A stretch of DNA of 64,000 nucleotides, from IMG/VR virus record IMGVR_UViG_3300036770_006434, positions 32,001 through 96,000 of that record; one strand, given 5' to 3'. Within the stretch, counting starts at the first letter, position 1. Each line of letters opens with the position of its first letter. The DNA comes from a virus. Position numbers and translations under genes: made by a program. This document shows positions 1,832 to 13,546 of this stretch, piece by piece. Below the pieces are notes generated by a model. The model saw nothing but the letters and a program-made list of their open reading frames with translations, had not been told where the DNA came from and made no database searches.

Positions 1832-2122
1832 TCAGTCGGACTTTTCTTTGCGGGCCATTCTCTCCTCCATAACAGAACGGTCGTAGGCGCCACACAGGTA
1901 GACGGAGCCAAAGATCAGAAACATAATCCCCGCACCGCCAAGTGCTGTGGCCCACCCCTTTTGGGCTCCAACCGCCGCGCCCAATAGGGTGCAACAGAAA
2001 AGCGGTATCATGCCGGGGTGTTCTCCGCAGTGTGGAAGCGTCCCACAGCCGCGCACAATGTGCTTGAAGAGGCCGATTTTCTGCGGAGCAGGAGCTTTTG
2101 AAGGAGTAGATTCAGTGGACAT
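1832..2122 (-). CDS. membrane protein
   Basis: MSTEST start; two hydrophobic segments. Confidence 0.55.
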   Translation of the reverse strand: MSTESTPSKAPAPQKIGLFKHIVRGCGTLPHCGEHPGMIPLFCCTLLGAAVGAQKGWATALGGAGIMFLIFGSVYLCGAYDRSVMEERMARKEKSD

Positions 2123-2199
2123 AAGCGAAAAGGTGCCGTTACCAGAGAGACATCCTCTCATATCGCGCGCCGGATGTCAAGCGCCTAGTTTGGCAAACG

Positions 2200-2703: not shown

Positions 2704-2904
2704 TCAGCGCAAATCCCCCAGATACCAAGGTTCGGTGCGGCAAAACCCCAGTGGAGGCAACGGTAGGTAGCCCGACTGGTAGGCTTCCTCAAGCATCAAG
2801 GTAACCATCGGAGCGATGGCGTGCTCCTGAAATTCGCGCCTGATATCGGCAAGCGCCAAGTCAAACGCCCTATGCTCGCTCTCTGCCGCGACAATTGTGC
2901 TCAT
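2704..2904 (-). CDS. hypothetical protein
   Basis: MSTIVAA start with GGAG RBS; ATGA overlap. Confidence 0.5.
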   Translation of the reverse strand: MSTIVAAESEHRAFDLALADIRREFQEHAIAPMVTLMLEEAYQSGYLPLPPLGFCRTEPWYLGDLR

Positions 2905-3167
2905 GTCTCCTCCCTGCATAAAGGCGGGTATCCCTCCGGCCAATCATCAAACGGGTCGGCCTCAGGGGCGTAACGACCGGCCTCGTTTACCATATCTCCA
3001 ATGTGCCGAAGCGCGCTATCATAAAGTGCGCCAAAAGCGATTTCTCCGCGCCGGTATTCGTCAAGCCTGAGAGGATCGCCAAAGTAGCCTTGAAACCGCT
3101 TTATCCACGCCTCGCGCGCGGCGTCGCGTCGAAGCATCCAACGCTCGGGACTTGAAGGGGTTTTCAT
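2901..3167 (-). CDS. hypothetical protein
   Basis: 88-aa ORF, co-oriented. Confidence 0.55.
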   Translation of the reverse strand: MKTPSSPERWMLRRDAAREAWIKRFQGYFGDPLRLDEYRRGEIAFGALYDSALRHIGDMVNEAGRYAPEADPFDDWPEGYPPLCREET

Positions 3168-3181
3168 GGTAAAGGAGCAGT

Positions 3182-3460
3182 CTACACCGAGGTTGAGTCA
3201 CCCAGCGCGTCCTTCACCAAGGGGTGACACTCATCGCGCAGCTCCAAGGGAAGGTCCTCAATGGAATAGCCCAGTTCCCCGAAGACGCCGCGCAGAGCAG
3301 GCACAGACAGGACGGCTCCACCGCTACCGTCAAAGGGCCATGCACCCAAAAGACGGAGGTCGCCATCAAACAGGGCTTGGGTCCGGGTGAGGGATGAGGA
3401 GTAAAGGTATAGAATGGATTCCGAAGACTTGATTTTTGGTCGGATAGGCATAGACTTCAA
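3182..3460 (-). CDS. hypothetical protein
   Basis: 92-aa ORF filling the gap between neighbours. Confidence 0.45.
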   Translation of the reverse strand: MKSMPIRPKIKSSESILYLYSSSLTRTQALFDGDLRLLGAWPFDGSGGAVLSVPALRGVFGELGYSIEDLPLELRDECHPLVKDALGDSTSV

Positions 3461-3487
3461 TGAGTTGGGTGTTTTTGAAAGAAGGGA

Positions 3488-3706
3488 TCAGCGCGATCCA
3501 GATGATCCAATGATTTTCGTGATATTCAGCCCCCAGTGAATCAGAACAAGGGCGGCGGCGATTTGCCAGTTCACGGAAATGATCCAAAACAAACCGACGA
3601 GACACAGGAATACCGCGAAGACCCGAAGGAGGAATGTGGCCTTGAGAGAAGCCTCTAGCGCGGAAATGACGTTGACGGGTTGACTATCGTTTTCGATGGG
3701 ATTCAT
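3488..3706 (-). CDS. small membrane protein (2 TM)
   Basis: two hydrophobic helices; ATGA overlap. Confidence 0.6.
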   Translation of the reverse strand: MNPIENDSQPVNVISALEASLKATFLLRVFAVFLCLVGLFWIISVNWQIAAALVLIHWGLNITKIIGSSGSR

Positions 3707-3873
3707 TGGGCGAAATGGGTGACTGACTTTTGCTTGGGTTCAGACTCAATGGCGGCCAGCCGCGCTTCCAGTCCTGCGATTTTACGTTCAATCTCCCCGA
3801 TTCGGGCGACTTCCCGGGCGGTTTTGGCGGCGGATGGGCGGATGAGACGGGATTTGGTCTTTGATTTAGTCAT
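3703..3873 (-). CDS. small coiled-coil protein
   Basis: IGEIERKIAGLEARLAAIE heptad pattern. Confidence 0.5.
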   Translation of the reverse strand: MTKSKTKSRLIRPSAAKTAREVARIGEIERKIAGLEARLAAIESEPKQKSVTHFAQ

Positions 3874-3904
3874 GGAATGGATGGTTAAACGGATTGGAGA
3901 TGGA

Positions 3905-4105
3905 TCAATCCCCATAGTATGGAACCTTTACCCCTCCAGTGCCCATGTCGTCTTCCAGCGCCTCTTCTGGCGTCAGTCCGGCGTCAAAGTAGGCACCCCA
4001 GAAACCGGCGTATTTAGCGGGGCCGATGTCCCATTTTTTGCCGGCGGCAAGGGAGACAAGTTCGGTATACCATTGACCGAAGTCTTCAGGAGATGGTTTT
4101 TTCAT
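3905..4105 (-). CDS. hypothetical protein
   Basis: 66-aa ORF abutting its neighbour. Confidence 0.55.
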   Translation of the reverse strand: MKKPSPEDFGQWYTELVSLAAGKKWDIGPAKYAGFWGAYFDAGLTPEEALEDDMGTGGVKVPYYGD

Positions 4106-4428
4106 TACGGGGCAGATTCTACGCTGTCTTGCGGGGTTTTGTCAAGGGCATATTCCAGCCGATACTCGGAATTGGCGGTTTCAAAGTGGACGACACCCCT
4201 TTCGGACCAGTGGGCAGTCGCCGTTACCGGGGAGGTTTGGAAGACTCCGTTCACCTTGACTCCATTGCGCTCGGACCGCGCGATGATCAGGGGGTGTCCA
4301 GCTTCCGGGAGCCCGTTCAAGGTAACGCCCTTGATCGTATATCCTTGAAAGATAGCGTGTTCGGGGATCGTCCCCTTGTCGGCGACCTTGGTGAGAGTGA
4401 TGGCGTAATCAGCGCGTGATTGGTTCAT
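4105..4428 (-). CDS. hypothetical protein
   Basis: 107-aa ORF, overlapping junctions. Confidence 0.6.
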   Translation of the reverse strand: MNQSRADYAITLTKVADKGTIPEHAIFQGYTIKGVTLNGLPEAGHPLIIARSERNGVKVNGVFQTSPVTATAHWSERGVVHFETANSEYRLEYALDKTPQDSVESAP

Positions 4429-4709
4429 ACGGTATTATCTGGTGTTTGCGAGCGCGTATCAAACTGCCGCGCGATATGGTTGGCGCGATCACGGTAAAAT
4501 CCCCACGGCAGCATTGCCAGTGCCGTCTCGCGCTCGTTGAGCATCCGCACTTGATGCGTTGCCGCGAGGTAAAACGTATTGGCGACCATCTGTCGGACGC
4601 TTCCGCGATCAGCAGTCTCCACTTCCTTGAGAAGCAGCTTTTCTTGTGAGCGCCAAAATTCGGCGTAAATCGGATGCAAAGTAAGAGTTGAATTTGTTGG
4701 CATTGTCAA
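4425..4709 (-). CDS. hypothetical protein
   Basis: 94-aa ORF, ATGA overlaps. Confidence 0.55.
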   Translation of the reverse strand: MTMPTNSTLTLHPIYAEFWRSQEKLLLKEVETADRGSVRQMVANTFYLAATHQVRMLNERETALAMLPWGFYRDRANHIARQFDTRSQTPDNTV

Positions 4710-4933
4710 TGTTGTTTGTCTGGCTGGCCAAGCACGGGAATCTCATAGGTATCGCCTTCGGTGGAGACCACGTATTCGGCGAGCCTAATCATGTGGTCCG
4801 GTCCGGTATCGCGCTTTACCATGGCCACGTCTCCGTTGGGTAATGTGTAATCGTAGTCCAGTCCCATGACGCTCTTGGCGCGCTCGTAGGCTTGGGCTTG
4901 TGCGGGAGTGCGGAAGGGGAAGTGGTCTAGCAT
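4706..4933 (-). CDS. hypothetical protein
   Basis: MLDHFPF start just after the rfaE2 stop, with GGAG RBS. Confidence 0.55.
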   Translation of the reverse strand: MLDHFPFRTPAQAQAYERAKSVMGLDYDYTLPNGDVAMVKRDTGPDHMIRLAEYVVSTEGDTYEIPVLGQPDKQH

Positions 4934-6604: not shown

Positions 6605-6910
6605 CTATTCCCCAGACTTTAGCCCAACTAGGGCGCTGAAGTCAAGCACATCCGAACAGAGAGCGCGCATTTCTTCGGTGCTGAGCCAGCCGTCAAGGCC
6701 GTCTCCGTGGTTTATGTCCTTGAGCGTCTTTGACTTGGAGTAATCTGCCCAGAACTCCTCCTCCGAATGGCCGATCTCTACGGTGAGCCCACCCCAACGG
6801 TAGCGTATATACACATAGCCGCCACCTTCCAACCCACCCTCCCACTGGCTAGGACAGGCGGTGCAGGTTTGCTCTAGGGTGATGACGCGGGGCAGTGGAA
6901 TGGCACTCAT
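6605..6910 (-). CDS. phage hypothetical protein
   Basis: QTC.ACPSQWEG...YIRYRWG motif. Confidence 0.65.
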   Translation of the reverse strand: MSAIPLPRVITLEQTCTACPSQWEGGLEGGGYVYIRYRWGGLTVEIGHSEEEFWADYSKSKTLKDINHGDGLDGWLSTEEMRALCSDVLDFSALVGLKSGE

Positions 6911-8087: not shown

Positions 8088-8801
8088 TTACTGCTCTCCC
8101 TCAGGAACCTTGAGGAGCACCGCAATACTGCGGTCCTCATGATAGCTCACGACATCGGCGTTGGCCTTCTCGAATGCCTCAAGCGCGGCGCGCAGTTGGG
8201 GAATACCATTCAGGTCGAACAGGTCCATGTCCTCCCACCCCCAAGCGTCCAGACAGTGCTCTACGACGCTCTCTGCGTCCAGCCCCTGAATGACCCGCTG
8301 TTTGCGCGTGGCCCAACAGTAGGTGGGATAATCCTCACGAGCAACCCCATCGCACGCCAAGCGGTCGTGCAGGTCCTCTACCGAGGGAAAGTAGTCATCA
8401 CCGTAGCACACCCAGCCGTCCCACTCCTCTTCGGCCACCTTCTGCGCGCGATCAAAGGCTCTGGCCTCGTTTGTGGCGCGCTGGGCGGTAAAGGCGTTGT
8501 CGTTCAGTAGCTTACGTTCGTCCTCAGTAAGGAGCGCGGTCATGATCTGCCCCTTGGCGTAAGCCCACTCTTCCGCGCCAGTCTCGTGGTCCATTTTTGG
8601 ATAGAGGAAACGGCCATAGGGCGAAAGGTCTGCGCAACGGGTGTTCAGAATGACCCGCCCTTCGCTGTCAAACACATTGGTCAGTCGGCGGCTAATTTCG
8701 GCATCAATCTCGGCGAGACGTTCGGCGGACAATAGCCCTGAGTCGCGGACCTGTTGGAGGCTTAGATAAAAACAAGGGATTTTTAGAGTGGTATCGGGCA
8801 T
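8088..8801 (-). CDS. phage hypothetical protein
   Basis: about 237-aa ORF; TTGAC-type promoter upstream. Confidence 0.65.
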   Translation of the reverse strand: MPDTTLKIPCFYLSLQQVRDSGLLSAERLAEIDAEISRRLTNVFDSEGRVILNTRCADLSPYGRFLYPKMDHETGAEEWAYAKGQIMTALLTEDERKLLNDNAFTAQRATNEARAFDRAQKVAEEEWDGWVCYGDDYFPSVEDLHDRLACDGVAREDYPTYCWATRKQRVIQGLDAESVVEHCLDAWGWEDMDLFDLNGIPQLRAALEAFEKANADVVSYHEDRSIAVLLKVPEGEQ

Positions 8802-8836
8802 GGTGCGGGATAGAATGGACCAAAATGGTCGAAAAG

Positions 8837-9139
8837 TCAATCACTTTTCTCTGGCCGCAAGACTTGAACGGTGACAAAAGTCCCGTCATCCGGGTTCCAT
8901 ATCTCTAGTCCTACAGGCTCTCCATCGCAAATGGAAAACATCCAGCGTTTATCGTTTTTCGGGCTAACCCCCAGTCCCACCAGTATTTTATGGGCGCGGG
9001 CCACGGTGTCAAGTCCGAGACCGCAGTCACGCATCAGCTCTCTAAGTCTGGCCGCGCGGCCGGGTGAAAAGTGTCGGTCTAGGGCGGCGTCTGTGAGGGC
9101 GGGTAAATCAATGGGAGTTGGTCCTTTCATGTGGACCAC
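8837..9139 (-). CDS. hypothetical protein
   Basis: ORF directly downstream of the promoter at 9140-9167. Confidence 0.55.
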   Translation of the reverse strand: MVHMKGPTPIDLPALTDAALDRHFSPGRAARLRELMRDCGLGLDTVARAHKILVGLGVSPKNDKRWMFSICDGEPVGLEIWNPDDGTFVTVQVLRPEKSD

Positions 9140-9167
9140 ATCCTACCCTCATACGGATGTAAGTCAA
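9140..9167 (-). promoter_or_regulatory. sigma70-like promoter TTGACT-N16-TAGGAT
   Basis: read directly from sequence; same 16-bp spacing as five other sites. Confidence 0.6.
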
Positions 9168-9185
9168 GCGGATTTTGCGGCAACG

Positions 9186-9719
9186 CTACAGATCAGACGC
9201 TTTCACCCAAGTCTTGTCCCGCCATTTGGCCCGCCTCCGACCAAGTGGCAGCAATCCCTTTTTCTTCCTTTTCCTGTTCTCCTTGTCCCTCTTTTTCTTA
9301 GGCATCGGACGCACCCAGACCGCGATCCAGTTCTTGCCTGATTTCTTCTCTGGCTCCCATTCGTCATCCGGTTTTGCCATCAACTTGCGGTTATACTTTT
9401 CTGCCTTCTTCAGTCTTTCCCAATCCTTAGCGGTCACCCGACGGCCAGTAGAGTCCAACCATTTTGCGATCTCATAGAATCTTGTCCCTGTTTTTTGACA
9501 GAACTCGTGGAATTCATGATGCAAATCGGTGGCAAGTGGGATTACGTCCAGCCATATAACCTCACGGCCCAATCTACGATAGTTCAGGTGATGAAGATCA
9601 AACACGGGATTTCCCGTTACAACACAACGTCCAAATTGTAACCTCGCGGAAGAACGAAAAGAAAGCCAATGAGGTGATTCAAGATAGTCTGAATACTTTT
9701 CAAAACGACGAATAGACAT
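9186..9719 (-). CDS. HNH-type endonuclease-like protein with basic C-terminal tail
   Basis: Y..YL.S..W...R, C.V.G....LHHLNY.RLG.E. Confidence 0.6.
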   Translation of the reverse strand: MSIRRFEKYSDYLESPHWLSFRSSARLQFGRCVVTGNPVFDLHHLNYRRLGREVIWLDVIPLATDLHHEFHEFCQKTGTRFYEIAKWLDSTGRRVTAKDWERLKKAEKYNRKLMAKPDDEWEPEKKSGKNWIAVWVRPMPKKKRDKENRKRKKKGLLPLGRRRAKWRDKTWVKASDL

Positions 9720-9850
9720 GGAGTAAAATACGTTACACAGTATATCTATCTATAATGTATATGTATCTAATGTCAACCCTATTCTAATGCCAAAACCCAA
9801 TTAAAGGGGCTTAACAGCGATGGGTGAACACAGTTGTCCTACACTTTTTA

Positions 9851-10025
9851 GCCGCACCTTCACCGCTTTCGCGCTGTCGCTGCGACCCATTGCCGGGCCG
9901 CAAACGTCCTCCAAGGGCTGCCGCATCTTCACCGCTTTCGCGAAGTCGCTGCGACGCCTCGTCTAAACTGACAAGGTTCCGTTGCGTTAGCCGCACTTTC
10001 ACCGCTTTCGCGAAGTCGCAGCGAC
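9851..10025 (-). CRISPR. mini CRISPR array: 3 x 36-bp repeats, 2 spacers (33 and 34 bp)
   Basis: Repeats at 9851-9886, 9920-9955 and 9990-10025 (minus consensus GTCGCAGCGACTTCGCGAAAGCGGTGAAGGTGCGGC; 1-2 mismatches each to the consensus); unique spacers at 9887-9919 and 9956-9989; 14 bp from the stop of the RuvC gene. Confidence 0.85.
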
Positions 10026-10039
10026 TTCGTTGTCACAAC

Positions 10040-10390
10040 TCACTTCGCTTCAGCATGTTCCATCCCATTCCGCGAGCGCCACTCGTTTCCGAGGTGCAGG
10101 ACTGGCTCCGCTTGGAGGATCGGTTTCCCAACCCATTCTACGGCAGATACCTGTGTGGCGCGAGCGCCTACGGGCAACTGTTCCTGCATTGCCGCGCTCG
10201 CGGCAGATGAAACACTGTTTTCACAATGAATAGACTGAGTCGCCTCAATCCGTTTCTGGTTCACGGGGACACCGCGTGACGAAAGATTTGATTCTTTCGT
10301 CACACACCTGCGTTTGCGGCCTCTCGTGAGTTTCCCCACGACAGACGTTGAACCAGACTTGCTGACCGGGTGCGTCCCGGCCGTTTCCTT
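10040..10390 (-). ncRNA. putative omegaRNA/tracr-like scaffold overlapping the 3' tail of the RuvC gene
   Basis: perfect 11-bp hairpin at 10276-10303; complementary GCCGCGAGCGC/GCGCTCGCGG segments; the ORF tail here is low-complexity and lies beyond RuvC-III. Confidence 0.45.
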
Positions 10391-11866
10391 ATCCGTTTTG
10401 GCGGATTCCGAAATTTGTCGCTCAGTTTTTTGAGCAATTGCCTGCGCGGCCATGTAGTCGCGACCCCAAACGGACCCGCAGCAGGAGCACGTCCACTCTC
10501 GGACCGATGTATCCTTGGGGCCAGTTACGTTCTCGCACTTGATACAGGTGCGGGTCGTATAGGCTTCGTTTACTTGGACCACTGACTTTGGCGTAACACT
10601 GCGTTTGGCAAAATCCTTGAGAATACCCTCGAAGTTGGACACCGCGTTGTCGGCGTCCTTCCTGCGGGCTGCCGCGATTTCGCGCGCAGTCTTTCCGTCG
10701 CGATTCTTTTCGTGTATGGCCGCAAGTTCGCGCCCCTTGCAGTGACCGATTCCAACCGTATCAAACTGGGAAAGGATGCTCCGCGCGGACAGACGGTAAT
10801 GTTCCGTCCTGACGTTGGTCAGCCGACGGGTCATGTCGTTCATTTTACGTCGGGTCTCAATCATGCCCTTCGTCTTTTTCCAGATCAGTTTGACGCCGCG
10901 TTTGATAGACCCTTTTTCGTCGTAATTGGCGGGGTTGTTCTGCCGCATCTGTCGATCCAATTTGCGCTGTAACCGCGCTTGGCGGCGCATAAAGGCGGCG
11001 TTCCTGCAAATCGGTGGCGTCACATTGCCCTGAATCTCGCCGTCTGCCGAGCTGATGGTGATGGCGCTCGTCCGTCCGGGGTCTATGCCGGCGACCGCAC
11101 CGTTGGCGGAAGCGAAATTCTTTTGAGCCACCTCTTCCGGAACGTCCAAAAACAGGGATACGTGATAAACATCGTCCTGAACCGTGACGCCGACCTGCTT
11201 GACAACGGCTTCCTTGGGAACTTCTCGGTGCAATTTGATATCAACTCGGGAGCATGAATCTCCGAACAGGGCCGACAGATTCACTTTGTCCCCACGGATC
11301 AAGTCCAAAGCGTCCAGTCGATTGGCGGCCTGAAGGGTGCAAGAATCGCCAAAACGCTTGAATCGCGGCGCGCCCTTTTTGTTGGATGGATATTGGTCGG
11401 TAGAATCTGCAAACTTCGCCAAGATGGACTGCAAAAACGCGGACCCACCCGAAAAATCTCCCCGTTTGATACCGTTGGAAACCGTCTCCTTGGCATATGT
11501 GAGAGCCAGAGTGCGGATGGAGGCCCGCTTAGCCTTGGTCCCGTCCTTGCGCAAAATGGTATCGGCCTTTTTAAGAATCTTGCCGTTTAATTCCAGAATC
11601 GCTTCTTGGCGACTCTTGCCGGCGGCCAACATGTCGTTCAATATCTTGGCGCGGGCACCGGTATTTTTCTTCTCGGCCAGAATGGATTCAAGGTTTTTGA
11701 CGACTTCGGCCTTGCGACCGTGCGAGCATTCGGATTCCACCCATTTCATTGCGCCGACCAAAGCGTTCCAGACCTTGCGGGATTGGCGCTGGGCATCTCT
11801 GATAGCCGGAATTTGCCCATCATTTGGGTAAATCCTGTATTTGTAGATCAGCGTGGTAAGAGTCAC
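10040..11866 (-). CDS. TnpB/Cas12f-like RNA-guided RuvC nuclease (608 aa) with rearranged RuvC-II
   Basis: N-terminal YKYRIYP; GAPRFK; RuvC-I AGIDPG; bridge helix QRKLDRQ.RQNNP.NY; RuvC-II VGIGH (E absent); VNEAYTTRTC; CxxC...CxxC; RuvC-III RDYMAA.AI. Confidence 0.9.
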   Translation of the reverse strand: MTLTTLIYKYRIYPNDGQIPAIRDAQRQSRKVWNALVGAMKWVESECSHGRKAEVVKNLESILAEKKNTGARAKILNDMLAAGKSRQEAILELNGKILKKADTILRKDGTKAKRASIRTLALTYAKETVSNGIKRGDFSGGSAFLQSILAKFADSTDQYPSNKKGAPRFKRFGDSCTLQAANRLDALDLIRGDKVNLSALFGDSCSRVDIKLHREVPKEAVVKQVGVTVQDDVYHVSLFLDVPEEVAQKNFASANGAVAGIDPGRTSAITISSADGEIQGNVTPPICRNAAFMRRQARLQRKLDRQMRQNNPANYDEKGSIKRGVKLIWKKTKGMIETRRKMNDMTRRLTNVRTEHYRLSARSILSQFDTVGIGHCKGRELAAIHEKNRDGKTAREIAAARRKDADNAVSNFEGILKDFAKRSVTPKSVVQVNEAYTTRTCIKCENVTGPKDTSVREWTCSCCGSVWGRDYMAAQAIAQKTERQISESAKTDKETAGTHPVSKSGSTSVVGKLTRGRKRRCVTKESNLSSRGVPVNQKRIEATQSIHCENSVSSAASAAMQEQLPVGARATQVSAVEWVGKPILQAEPVLHLGNEWRSRNGMEHAEAK

Positions 11867-11874
11867 TTCCCACC

Positions 11875-11902
11875 ATTATACAAGAATTGTCCTTGGCGTC
11901 AA
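11875..11902 (-). promoter_or_regulatory. sigma70-like promoter TTGACG-N16-TATAAT for the RuvC gene (near-leaderless)
   Basis: perfect -10 box ends 8 nt before the GTG start at 11866. Confidence 0.75.
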
Positions 11903-11991
11903 GGGGTTTTTAAGCAGACTCAGGTCACTTTGGTCGGCTCACTTTGGAGTCGCGCCGCCTGCCAGAGCGCAAAATGATGGTGTGTAAACCC

Positions 11992-12126
11992 TTAAAACAG
12001 GAACCCGCCAATGACGAGACCCGCCAGTCCAACTGCCAACACGATCTTGCCGGAATACGACTTGCCAAGAAACGCTTGGAAATGGGAGAAAGCGGCGGTA
12101 AGGAAGGATTTCAGTTTTTCGTTCAT
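11992..12126 (-). CDS. 44-aa membrane peptide (not in the ORF track)
   Basis: MNEKLKSFLTAAFSHFQAFLGKSYSGKIVLAVGLAGLVIGGFLF; C-terminal TM helix. Confidence 0.55.
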   Translation of the reverse strand: MNEKLKSFLTAAFSHFQAFLGKSYSGKIVLAVGLAGLVIGGFLF

Positions 12127-12189
12127 GGTATCCTGAGTTACACAGAAATCCCATTGGTTTCAGCCACTATTAGCTGATCTAATGGTATG

Positions 12190-12798
12190 TTACACCAACA
12201 GGAATGGCCGCCAGTCAGGGTGTCTAACCTCCCGAATGGTGACGGAGGCCGGCAGAGCCGGAGGCGCGACTGGTTTGCGAATAAGGGCGAGGCCGACTTC
12301 GTGGTTTAACCTGTTACTCTTCATGGAGTTCAGCTTTTTGTCCGCTACCACCATGTTGCTCCATTCATCCTTGCCGCCTCGGTCCTTGGGAATGACATGG
12401 TCAATATTCAACTGGTGACGCGGCAGTTTACGGCCGGTATACTGACATACGGAATTATCCCGTGCAAATATGGCCCCGGCTGACAGGCGCGGCCTTTTCA
12501 TAGGCATTTCCCCGTAGTTTTTGCTCACGACCACGGTCGGCACCCTGATCATTCTGGTCGCAGTCCTGACGTGAAGGTCTCCCGCGCGGACCGGGAGTTC
12601 GATCCACTCATCCCAACCCACGGGATTCGCGTAAATCAATTCGCCGTTTTCCATCTGGATGTCCAGCGCCAAAACCGGGGGCTCGCCGCCGGACTCGGAG
12701 CACAGAGAGGTGATGGCGGATTTCACGGTTTTTACGGAAATCGGCTGCCACTTGGAGTTCAGGCAGAGGGTTAGATGGGAGTCTAGGATGTGTGACAC
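12190..12798 (-). CDS. HNH endonuclease (McrA-like)
   Basis: IFARD...CQYTG....NIDHVIPK.RGG...W.N.V....LN..K. Confidence 0.9.
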   Translation of the reverse strand: MSHILDSHLTLCLNSKWQPISVKTVKSAITSLCSESGGEPPVLALDIQMENGELIYANPVGWDEWIELPVRAGDLHVRTATRMIRVPTVVVSKNYGEMPMKRPRLSAGAIFARDNSVCQYTGRKLPRHQLNIDHVIPKDRGGKDEWSNMVVADKKLNSMKSNRLNHEVGLALIRKPVAPPALPASVTIREVRHPDWRPFLLV

Positions 12799-12816
12799 GG
12801 TCTATGATTTTGCGGT

Positions 12817-12844
12817 ATTCTATGGAATCGGGGTAAGAGGTCAA
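12817..12844 (-). promoter_or_regulatory. sigma70-like promoter TTGACC-N16-TAGAAT
   Basis: directly upstream of the HNH gene. Confidence 0.6.
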
Positions 12845-12859
12845 GCAGAAAAGAGAATG

Positions 12860-12949
12860 CGGTGAGCTAAGGTATCGCGCCCTAGGGCCAGAGTTACTGT
12901 CCCCCACGAAGGTTCAAACTTCGGTCAATGCTTCATTGATTAACTCACC
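12860..12949 (-). tRNA. tRNA-Ser(TGA)-like
   Basis: GGTGAGT/GCTCACC acceptor; CGAAG-TTTGAAC-CTTCG anticodon arm; long V arm; atypical T loop; no CCA. Confidence 0.6.
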
Positions 12950-12955
12950 ATAAAA

Positions 12956-13035
12956 TGGCGCAAGCGAGAGGGAATGATCCTCCATGTATCCAGTTACCCT
13001 TTCTGCGGTTTAGGAAACCGAGGGGATACGCCTGC
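12956..13035 (-). tRNA. aberrant tRNA-Arg(CCT)-like RNA lacking a normal D arm
   Basis: GCAGGCG/CGCTTGC-G-CCA acceptor; CGGT-TTCCTAA-ACCG; GTATCC/GGATAC pairing flanks the anticodon arm. Confidence 0.5.
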
Positions 13036-13045
13036 GTAAGATTGT

Positions 13046-13546
13046 CTACCGATGTGCCGCGAACCAAGCATCTCTCTCCGGCGCTCGTCGCCCGGTTTCG
13101 GCGCTCACGAAGGTTTCCATCTCCCCGTCGCGCCCCATGATGGCGTCTGCATGTTTGATCATCAGCTGGTTGGGGCACACGAACGGGCCGCGCACAGAGA
13201 CGATTAACTGATAGGCATCGGCATACGATATACCATGCCAAACTAGCCAGATAAAGGCGGCGGCGCTGGAGCGGGAAACGCCGGCAAAGCAATGGAAGAG
13301 GATACGATGATTGAGCGCAGTCTGGGCGTAGATTCCCAGTAGCCGGCGCATGGTATCCTCCGTGACCGCCTGTTTATTCGCGGGGTCTCCGGTATCGTCA
13401 AATACGAAGCTGTGCAAAGCGAAGTCCCCTTTGAAAGCGCGAATATCCGGCGCGGGCTGCCGAGAGTCGCGGATAGAGATGATGTGGTCTAGGGGAGTGG
13501 CAGCGAAGGATGGGACCTCGTGGACGCCGCAGATGAAAAGGGGCAT
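13046..13546 (-). CDS. PTP/dual-specificity-type phosphatase
   Basis: HCFAGVSRS (Cx5R) P-loop; FDD general-acid loop. Confidence 0.85.
   Translation of the reverse strand: MPLFICGVHEVPSFAATPLDHIISIRDSRQPAPDIRAFKGDFALHSFVFDDTGDPANKQAVTEDTMRRLLGIYAQTALNHRILFHCFAGVSRSSAAAFIWLVWHGISYADAYQLIVSVRGPFVCPNQLMIKHADAIMGRDGEMETFVSAETGRRAPERDAWFAAHR

Follow-up and report, generated by a model that had tools for sequence, protein, structure and literature searches.

Whether the DNA encoding the C-terminal tail of a phage-borne TnpB-like nuclease serves mainly as coding sequence, or as the gene of a guide-RNA scaffold joined to a neighboring repeat array, is the question raised by this locus. TnpB omegaRNAs overlap the 3' end of tnpB, and here a nuclease gene of this family is followed directly by a short array of repeats and spacers. 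The window, that is, the whole 64,000-nucleotide stretch of DNA that was analyzed, corresponds to bases 32001-96000 of a complete 190,671-bp (190.7-kb) phage record (IMGVR_UViG_3300036770_006434) with direct terminal repeats; the effector gene is present as a single copy in that genome. The answer preferred here, to which a probability of roughly 0.7 is assigned, is that the DNA for the disordered tail (approximately 10026-10385, minus strand) primarily encodes a guide-RNA scaffold of ~360 nt, whose role would be homologous to that of the TnpB omegaRNA/reRNA. The sequence-only reading of this DNA had proposed an omegaRNA-like scaffold of ~350 nt acting as a built-in tracrRNA, and this proposal appears to hold in substance in view of covariation, the absence of protein-type constraint and a fixed distance to the repeats.

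The effector is a 608-aa RNA-guided nuclease of the TnpB family (10040..11866, minus strand) with a RuvC domain and a zinc-finger TNB domain, an assignment based on profile and fold matches. It matches NF040570, the NCBIfam TnpB profile, over residues 8-480 with 101.4 bits against a cut-off of 100, and its Cas12f1-like TNB zinc-finger domain is recognized by PF07282 (E 4e-11). The AF2 model of the effector body is confident, with a folded part that ends near residue 495 (a core of ~490 aa), and the closest solved folds retrieved by Foldseek are ISDra2 TnpB and ISFba1 TnpB (8h1j, 8iaz), followed by Cas12f, Cas12m, Cas12p and Fanzor2. By sequence, the closest solved chains are LaTranC (9jfq, E 3.3e-15), TnpB (5e-13) and, more weakly, RdCas12n (9j09, E 6.6e-9); the PDB search with the effector also returns Fanzor2 (9b0l, E 1.8e-7). 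The RuvC-I aspartate is found in a DPG context within a GIDPGR motif (approximately 11084-11098). Residues 495-608, which are rich in K, R and S, have an AF2 pLDDT of ~28 (<50) and are predicted to be disordered. This tail had previously been described as about 125 low-complexity codons past RuvC-III. The term low-complexity is imprecise; the segment is more aptly called poorly conserved and predicted to be disordered, and it lies beyond residue 480, where the NF040570 match ends.

Directly upstream of the effector start lies a predicted sigma-70-like promoter (11875..11902, minus strand), composed of TTGACG, a 16-nt spacer and TATAAT, with 11/12 consensus matches; it is the sole promoter-like site in a scan of 9600-12100. 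Among the 10 neighboring ORFs, no cas1, cas2, cas4 or transposase domain is detected, and neither a TnpA gene nor transposon ends are seen. The gene directly upstream of the effector encodes an HNH endonuclease (PF13395, PF01844; 12190-12798, minus strand), and past it a weak dual-specificity-phosphatase-like ORF, scoring below the Pfam cut-off, occupies 13046-13546 (minus strand).

Read as minus-strand RNA, the region 9990-10400 (411 nt) folds with a minimum free energy of -183.7 kcal/mol, compared with -143.3 +/- 5.6 kcal/mol for 100 dinucleotide shuffles (z = -7.2), none of which folds as well. No Rfam covariance model matches at E <= 1 within 8500-13000. The predicted structured scaffold, omegaRNA- or tracrRNA-like, spans ~360 nt (10026..10385, minus strand), is co-extensive with the coding DNA of residues ~495-608 and is delineated by the fold score, by covariation among homologs and by the order of its elements, all of which lie on the minus strand. 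The most 5' element in the RNA is hairpin P1 (CCGGG/CCCGG; 10366..10380), whose homologous hairpin covaries through CG<->GC and GC<->AU exchanges. It is followed by the 5' arm of the long-range helix P3 (RNA UCUGGUUCA; 10349..10357), which pairs at 9/9 positions with 10255-10263 and closes a junction holding P4 and P5. P4 (UCGUG...CACGA; 10324..10341) is a hairpin with a positional counterpart in each of the homolog folds, while P5 (10276..10303) has a perfect 11-bp stem (10276-10286 / 10293-10303) and corresponds in all homologs to an equivalently placed hairpin whose sequence differs. Between P4 and P5 lies the conserved junction motif CAAACGCAGG (10307..10316; CAAACGAAGG in homologs), whose columns are nearly invariant, and P5 is followed by a conserved GUCCCCGU motif and then the 3' arm of P3 (UGAACCAGA), together occupying 10255..10270 and recognized by conserved columns and by complementarity within P3.

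The remainder of the RNA is organized around a second long-range helix, H6. Its 5' arm (RNA CCGCGAGCGC; 10194..10203) has 94% of cells paired in the homolog alignment, and its 3' arm (RNA GCGCUCGCGG; 10070..10079) is likewise placed by that alignment, with repeat 1 starting 53 nt later. In between, a local self-folding hairpin, GGCGCUCGCGCC (10156..10167), contains the first of two GCGCTCGCG copies; the second copy pairs with GCGAGCGC. Several of these features had been noticed from the letters of the DNA alone and are present as described, namely the perfect 11-bp inverted repeat of P5, the CCGGG/CCCGG hairpin, a 19-nt palindrome at 10011-10029, and the complementarity of one sequence to two copies, in which GCGCTCGCGG (10194-10203) pairs with CCGCGAGCGC (10070-10079) at 10/10 positions and 10156-10167 at 11/12. 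The perfect 9-bp helix P3 was absent from that earlier account and is the best-covarying helix in homologs.

The effector belongs to a small family, with no more than 41 of 1.84 billion protein cluster representatives scoring at E <= 1e-30 and 659 at E <= 1e-3. In IMG/VR, a single-protein search returned no close relatives, and an alignment-based search returned only a 219-kb phage. DNA was compared for about a dozen non-redundant homologous loci with 32-46% protein identity, drawn from this 219-kb phage (L002), soil metagenome contigs and two Chthoniobacterales MAG contigs (L034, L035). The tail after RuvC-III measures 112-131 residues in most of these loci, the exceptions being L015 (183), L017-L020 (15), L028/L030 (41) and L031 (53). 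Alignment of the tail DNA reveals conserved nucleotide blocks separated by hairpins that keep their position and change their sequence. The order of elements in homologs is P1, P2, the 5' arm of P3, P4, CAAACGAAGG, P5, GUCCCCGU, the 3' arm of P3 and the second (3') domain, which is closed by the GCGAGCGC/GCGCUCGC helix H6 and encloses further helices. Hairpin P2 is missing from the window, whose P4 and P5 are longer than those of the homologs.

Covariation was counted in MAFFT alignments made without fitting to a structure. For the 5' domain, evaluated in 10 homologs with the window left out, the share of paired cells is 92.8%, compared with 71.9% in shuffled alignments and 25-57% when the 3' partners are slid, and the covariation value is 0.589 against 0.212 for shuffles. 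The corresponding figures for the 3' domain, with the window included, are 89.1%, 78.0% and 31-43% for paired cells and 0.356 against 0.173 for covariation. In neither domain does any shuffle reach the observed covariation (0/500 each), a positive outcome for both halves of the tail RNA across homologous loci; within P3, both sides have changed in 6/7 pairs among the homologs. A covariance model of the 5' domain (R1), trained on 10 loci without the window, matches all 10 training loci and two further copies in the soil contig L004, and scores 55.8 and 38.6 bits on two unseen Chthoniobacterales MAG loci. The window's own tail is missed by R1 with default filters and scores 11.1 bits with filters off (E 0.05 over 3.5 kb, with P3 misaligned). 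Because the model is weak on the window, the assignment of the window's RNA to this family relies on the shared element order and on an alignment that includes the window (A4).

The array begins 14 nt past the effector stop codon (10040-10042) and is composed, on the minus strand, of repeat 1 (36 nt; 9990..10025), spacer 1 (34 nt; 9956..9989), repeat 2 (36 nt; 9920..9955), spacer 2 (33 nt; 9887..9919) and repeat 3 (36 nt; 9851..9886), followed by unique sequence that may represent a third guide. The three repeats are 85-90% identical, and the spacers are unique. Neither spacer has a detectable target in the collections searched, since GenBank phages yield only 19-20-nt matches at E >= 0.3, IMG/VR contains no exact 20-mer, and the phage's own genome contains only the spacers themselves. 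Nucleotides 11-29 of spacer 1 (9961-9979) match, at 19/19 positions (E = 0.4), the gene for the large terminase in 117 records of phages of Escherichia and Campylobacter; this match is confined to the central part of the spacer and probably arose by chance. The repeat itself has no match in 185,579 species reference genomes or in IMG/VR.

The number of repeat units differs among homologs, with one in L002, two in L003, L005, L015, L028 and L031, three in the window and at least four in L034, and the array period is 69-76 nt across many diverged loci. In L034 (Chthoniobacterales MAG contig CAXTRS010000204.1), the repeats (4608-4868, at least four with a period of 72-73 nt) directly follow the family scaffold, and this MAG homolog hints that Chthoniobacterales fall within the host range of these phages. 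In L002, the closest phage homolog (219-kb phage IMGVR_UViG_3300045051_000720), one repeat-like terminal unit is located at 6707-6742 and resembles a classical single-guide omegaRNA; the would-be guide reaches into the beginning of the phage gene that follows. The next 600 nt of L002 contain no second unit, the best alignment score there being 8, compared with a shuffled mean of 8.5 and a score of 30 for the window control.

Scaffold and array are linked by a fixed geometry. Counted from the start of the 3' arm of H6, repeat 1 begins at 53 nt in the window, L002, L003 and L005, at 54 nt in L015, at 52 nt in L028 and at 51 nt in L034; L031 (66 nt) is the only one of the eight loci outside 51-54 nt. 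This constancy in 7/8 loci indicates that scaffold and array form one unit, and it suggests that the conserved RNA has repeat 1 as its terminal module, copied to make up the array. Repeat 1 is preceded by a 46-nt linker that folds back on it; within this linker, a candidate anti-repeat of ~36 nt (10031..10066, minus strand) pairs in cis with repeat 1, the 19-nt palindrome included, and is also able to form trans pairs with repeats 2 and 3. The predicted duplexes of positions 6-41 of the window linker (10066-10031) extend over the whole of repeat 2 (-31.5 kcal/mol) and the whole of repeat 3 (-26.0 kcal/mol).

In an own-versus-cross duplex test of seven loci, linkers pair with their own repeat at a mean of -29.3 kcal/mol, whereas cross pairs average -21.4 kcal/mol, and among all 5040 permutations the true assignment ranks first. 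Compensatory changes are seen between L005 and L034, where CACGCGC/GCGCGUG stands against CACGCAC/GUGCGUG. The hairpin formed by linker plus repeat has z values of -2.9 in the window, -4.1 in L002 and -3.5 in L005, and it is not significant in L003, L015, L028 and L031 (z -1.5 to +0.7). RNAalifold applied to the linker and repeat 1 yields only 7 consensus pairs, because bulges differ between lineages. The repeats can also self-fold through pairing of their ends, the L034 repeat forming a 17-bp self-hairpin. When RNAduplex is used to look for a classical anti-repeat anywhere in the scaffold, none emerges, as the duplex energies of the repeat are no better than those of shuffled repeats. A 6-nt anti-repeat match had been reported at 10315-10320; the TGCGGC in question is present, but it is not conserved in homologs and is expected by chance for a 6-mer in 350 nt, and it was dropped in favor of 10031-10066, the better candidate. 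On the pairing observed, the latter segment is likely, though not proven, to be the anti-repeat.

In the mechanism proposed here, the scaffold would be transcribed together with the effector from the predicted promoter at 11875-11902 and would fold as two covariation-supported domains, of which the 5' domain would comprise P1 and the P3-closed junction with P4 and P5, and the 3' domain would be closed by H6. It would end in the anti-repeat of ~36 nt (10031-10066), which would fold back on repeat 1, so that scaffold, repeat 1 and spacer 1 would constitute a natural single-guide RNA. Repeats 2 and 3 would be duplicates of the terminal module that borrow the same scaffold in trans, much as a crRNA does with a tracrRNA, while the protein tail would be a tolerated by-product of translation through the scaffold. 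Judging from the sequence, the RNA would thereby be co-transcribed, processed and bound by the effector, would direct DNA targeting and would take on a tracrRNA function.

The part played by the later repeats can also be understood differently. The RNA may be a real omegaRNA that serves the first guide in cis only, with repeats 2 and 3 as inert duplications of the 3' module and the array either in the making or in decay. Such a history would suit repeats that are merely 85-90% identical and a unit number that runs from one (L002) through two (L003, L005, L015, L028 and L031) to four (L034), and it would agree with the lack of adaptation genes among the 10 neighboring ORFs, of spacer targets in GenBank phages, IMG/VR (exact 20-mers) or the phage itself, and of the repeat in 185,579 reference genomes and IMG/VR. 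It is nonetheless considered unlikely, as no spacer is repeated and their length (33-34 nt) is CRISPR-like, repeats 2 and 3 retain full-length complementarity to the anti-repeat, and arrays with a 69-76-nt period recur in many diverged loci, which suggests maintenance.

The scaffold reading also entails that the tail DNA is shaped by RNA structure, and the pattern of substitution bears on this directly. Codon position 3 accounts for 50% of differences in the 220-codon stretch that precedes the tail versus 38% in the tail (10 pairs), and for 53% of body differences versus 35% of tail differences in the closest pair. The tail of L031 carries stops in all three frames, L017/L020 have a stop at tail codon 15, and the nucleotide blocks persist in each of them. 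By these patterns of sequence change, the tail DNA is constrained as RNA and not as protein. Conservation of the tail as protein rather than as RNA had been named beforehand as the finding that would speak against a scaffold, and the opposite is found, as the tail covaries, lacks a coding-type substitution pattern and is predicted to be disordered. L028/L030 were considered as proof of an untranslated tail and rejected, in that their frameshift leaves another frame open throughout and the body of the gene is disrupted as well.

Frame 0 of the tail is stop-free in 6/12 lineages while the other frames carry 1-8 stops, which suggests that translation through the scaffold is tolerated and possibly favored. 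The frame that is open across the tail in most lineages, with 1-8 stops in the other two, could also be taken as a sign that the tail is selected mainly as protein, for example as a disordered nucleic-acid-binding or regulatory extension, and that the RNA helices are secondary or serve only mRNA stability or translation; the K-, R- and S-rich composition and the short islands VPV, SAASA and GARA, which align across homologs, would fit this account. These islands, however, are the translation of helix arms and invariant RNA motifs, the compensatory double changes alter amino acids, and the position-3 bias is nearly lost in the tail, which moreover has a pLDDT of ~28 and is truncated in L031, L017 and L020, so that selection mainly as protein is regarded as very improbable. 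Scarcely credible is a reading of the array from the plus strand with the AT-rich stretch at 9720-9847 as leader, in which the array would converge on the effector and the crRNAs would be separate from the tail RNA, for although CRISPR array leaders are typically AT-rich and this region (GC 0.36-0.44) adjoins the far end of the array, it contains no plus-strand promoter-like site and could just as well be the promoter that serves the following minus-strand ORF (9186-9719), repeat 1 stands at a fixed distance from the scaffold in most loci, and TnpB/Cas12 guides are located 3' of the repeat or scaffold, an order compatible with the minus strand alone.

The layout favored here, with a scaffold encoded in the tail of the nuclease gene, is already known from TnpB, Cas12n and TranC, and in this locus it is found in a rare, unclassified lineage. 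The best profile and fold matches are to the TnpB-omegaRNA systems of IS200/IS605 elements (ISDra2, ISFba1), and, as in these systems, a structured RNA is predicted to extend over the 3' end of the ORF and to be followed by the guide; the L002 homolog resembles them further in its single guide unit. Unlike them, the window contains three repeat-spacer units and not one guide, and the combination typical of IS200/IS605 or IS607 elements, a single guide with TnpA or transposon ends, is not seen among the effector and its neighbors. In addition, the protein is ~200 aa longer than ISDra2 TnpB.

In Cas12n, the C-terminus is disordered and the tracrRNA overlaps the ORF (PMC12216341). The locus shares with Cas12n (V-U4) a compact TnpB-derived effector, a disordered C-terminus whose DNA carries a structured, covarying RNA and would, by prediction, double as tracrRNA, and an array without adaptation genes (PMC12216341). 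It differs from Cas12n in its distant sequence (9j09, E 6.6e-9), in its scaffold of ~360 nt, in an anti-repeat that abuts repeat 1 and would fuse the first guide in cis, and in arrays of 1-4 units.

TranC proteins, or transposon-CRISPR intermediates (Jin et al., Cell 2025, doi 10.1016/j.cell.2025.09.004), are described as TnpB-like nucleases with short arrays that derive from an reRNA split into tracrRNA and crRNA, some of them phage-borne, such as CauTranC9; for TranC clades 11 and 20, the tracrRNA is reported to be located outside the CTD coding region. The locus resembles TranC in being phage-borne and in having a TnpB-like nuclease that adjoins a short array, and its candidate anti-repeat (10031-10066), with significance that varies from locus to locus, may correspond to the split of the reRNA, while only the RuvC region of the effector matches LaTranC (9jfq, E 3.3e-15). 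Altae-Tran et al. 2023 (PMC10691335) propose that arrays arose from serial duplication of omegaRNA segments, and they include 40 unnamed V-U branches (V-U6 to V-U45) of TnpB with arrays and no other cas genes, some of them virus-specific with rearranged catalytic sites. The window is like these V-U* candidates in that a TnpB is linked to an array with no cas1, cas2 or cas4 among the 10 neighboring ORFs, and the text consulted contains no description of the window's scaffold RNA. Among type V features, direct repeats and unique spacers next to a RuvC effector are present, whereas spacer matches to mobile elements are lacking in the collections searched and adaptation genes are lacking among the 10 neighboring ORFs. 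The locus appears to work like these systems and belongs to no curated or solved family tested.

What is new here is the structure of the scaffold itself, together with the one-to-four-unit series. A covariation-backed secondary structure is a prerequisite for reconstituting this rare, compact, phage-borne nuclease, and members with one, two, three and four repeats on one scaffold provide a natural series in which an origin of arrays by duplication of the omegaRNA 3' module can be tested. As a tentative extension that may well prove wrong, the family, which occurs in phages and Verrucomicrobia, might preserve a transition from omegaRNA to CRISPR, with one scaffold inside the nuclease ORF and a 36-nt module present once (L002), twice, three times (window) or four times or more (L034). 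The first guide would then always be a single-guide RNA and later guides would reuse the scaffold in trans, and the open frame may couple translation to folding or release of the guide RNA. For annotation, a long, disordered and poorly conserved C-terminal tail on a TnpB- or Cas12-like protein may be an RNA gene.

Additional features were observed in individual homologous loci. In the L010-L014 group, a different repeated element lies downstream of the scaffold (L010:4820-5220), with units such as TTGTCATCTGAGACAGAAA at ~95-nt spacings that are unrelated to the family repeats. Four contigs (L024-L027; match 3001-4330) carry the same nuclease gene copy riddled with stops, and this lineage is pseudogenized. 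The soil contig L004 contains three diverged copies of the 5' domain (75-80% identity) at 1953-2135 (minus strand), 2882-3019 (plus strand) and 4182-4362 (plus strand); one belongs to a normal tail, one lies inside a 722-aa ORF beside a duplicated N-terminal piece of the body, and one is inverted upstream of the gene. These copies suggest nested insertions or recombination of related elements, and hence past mobility.
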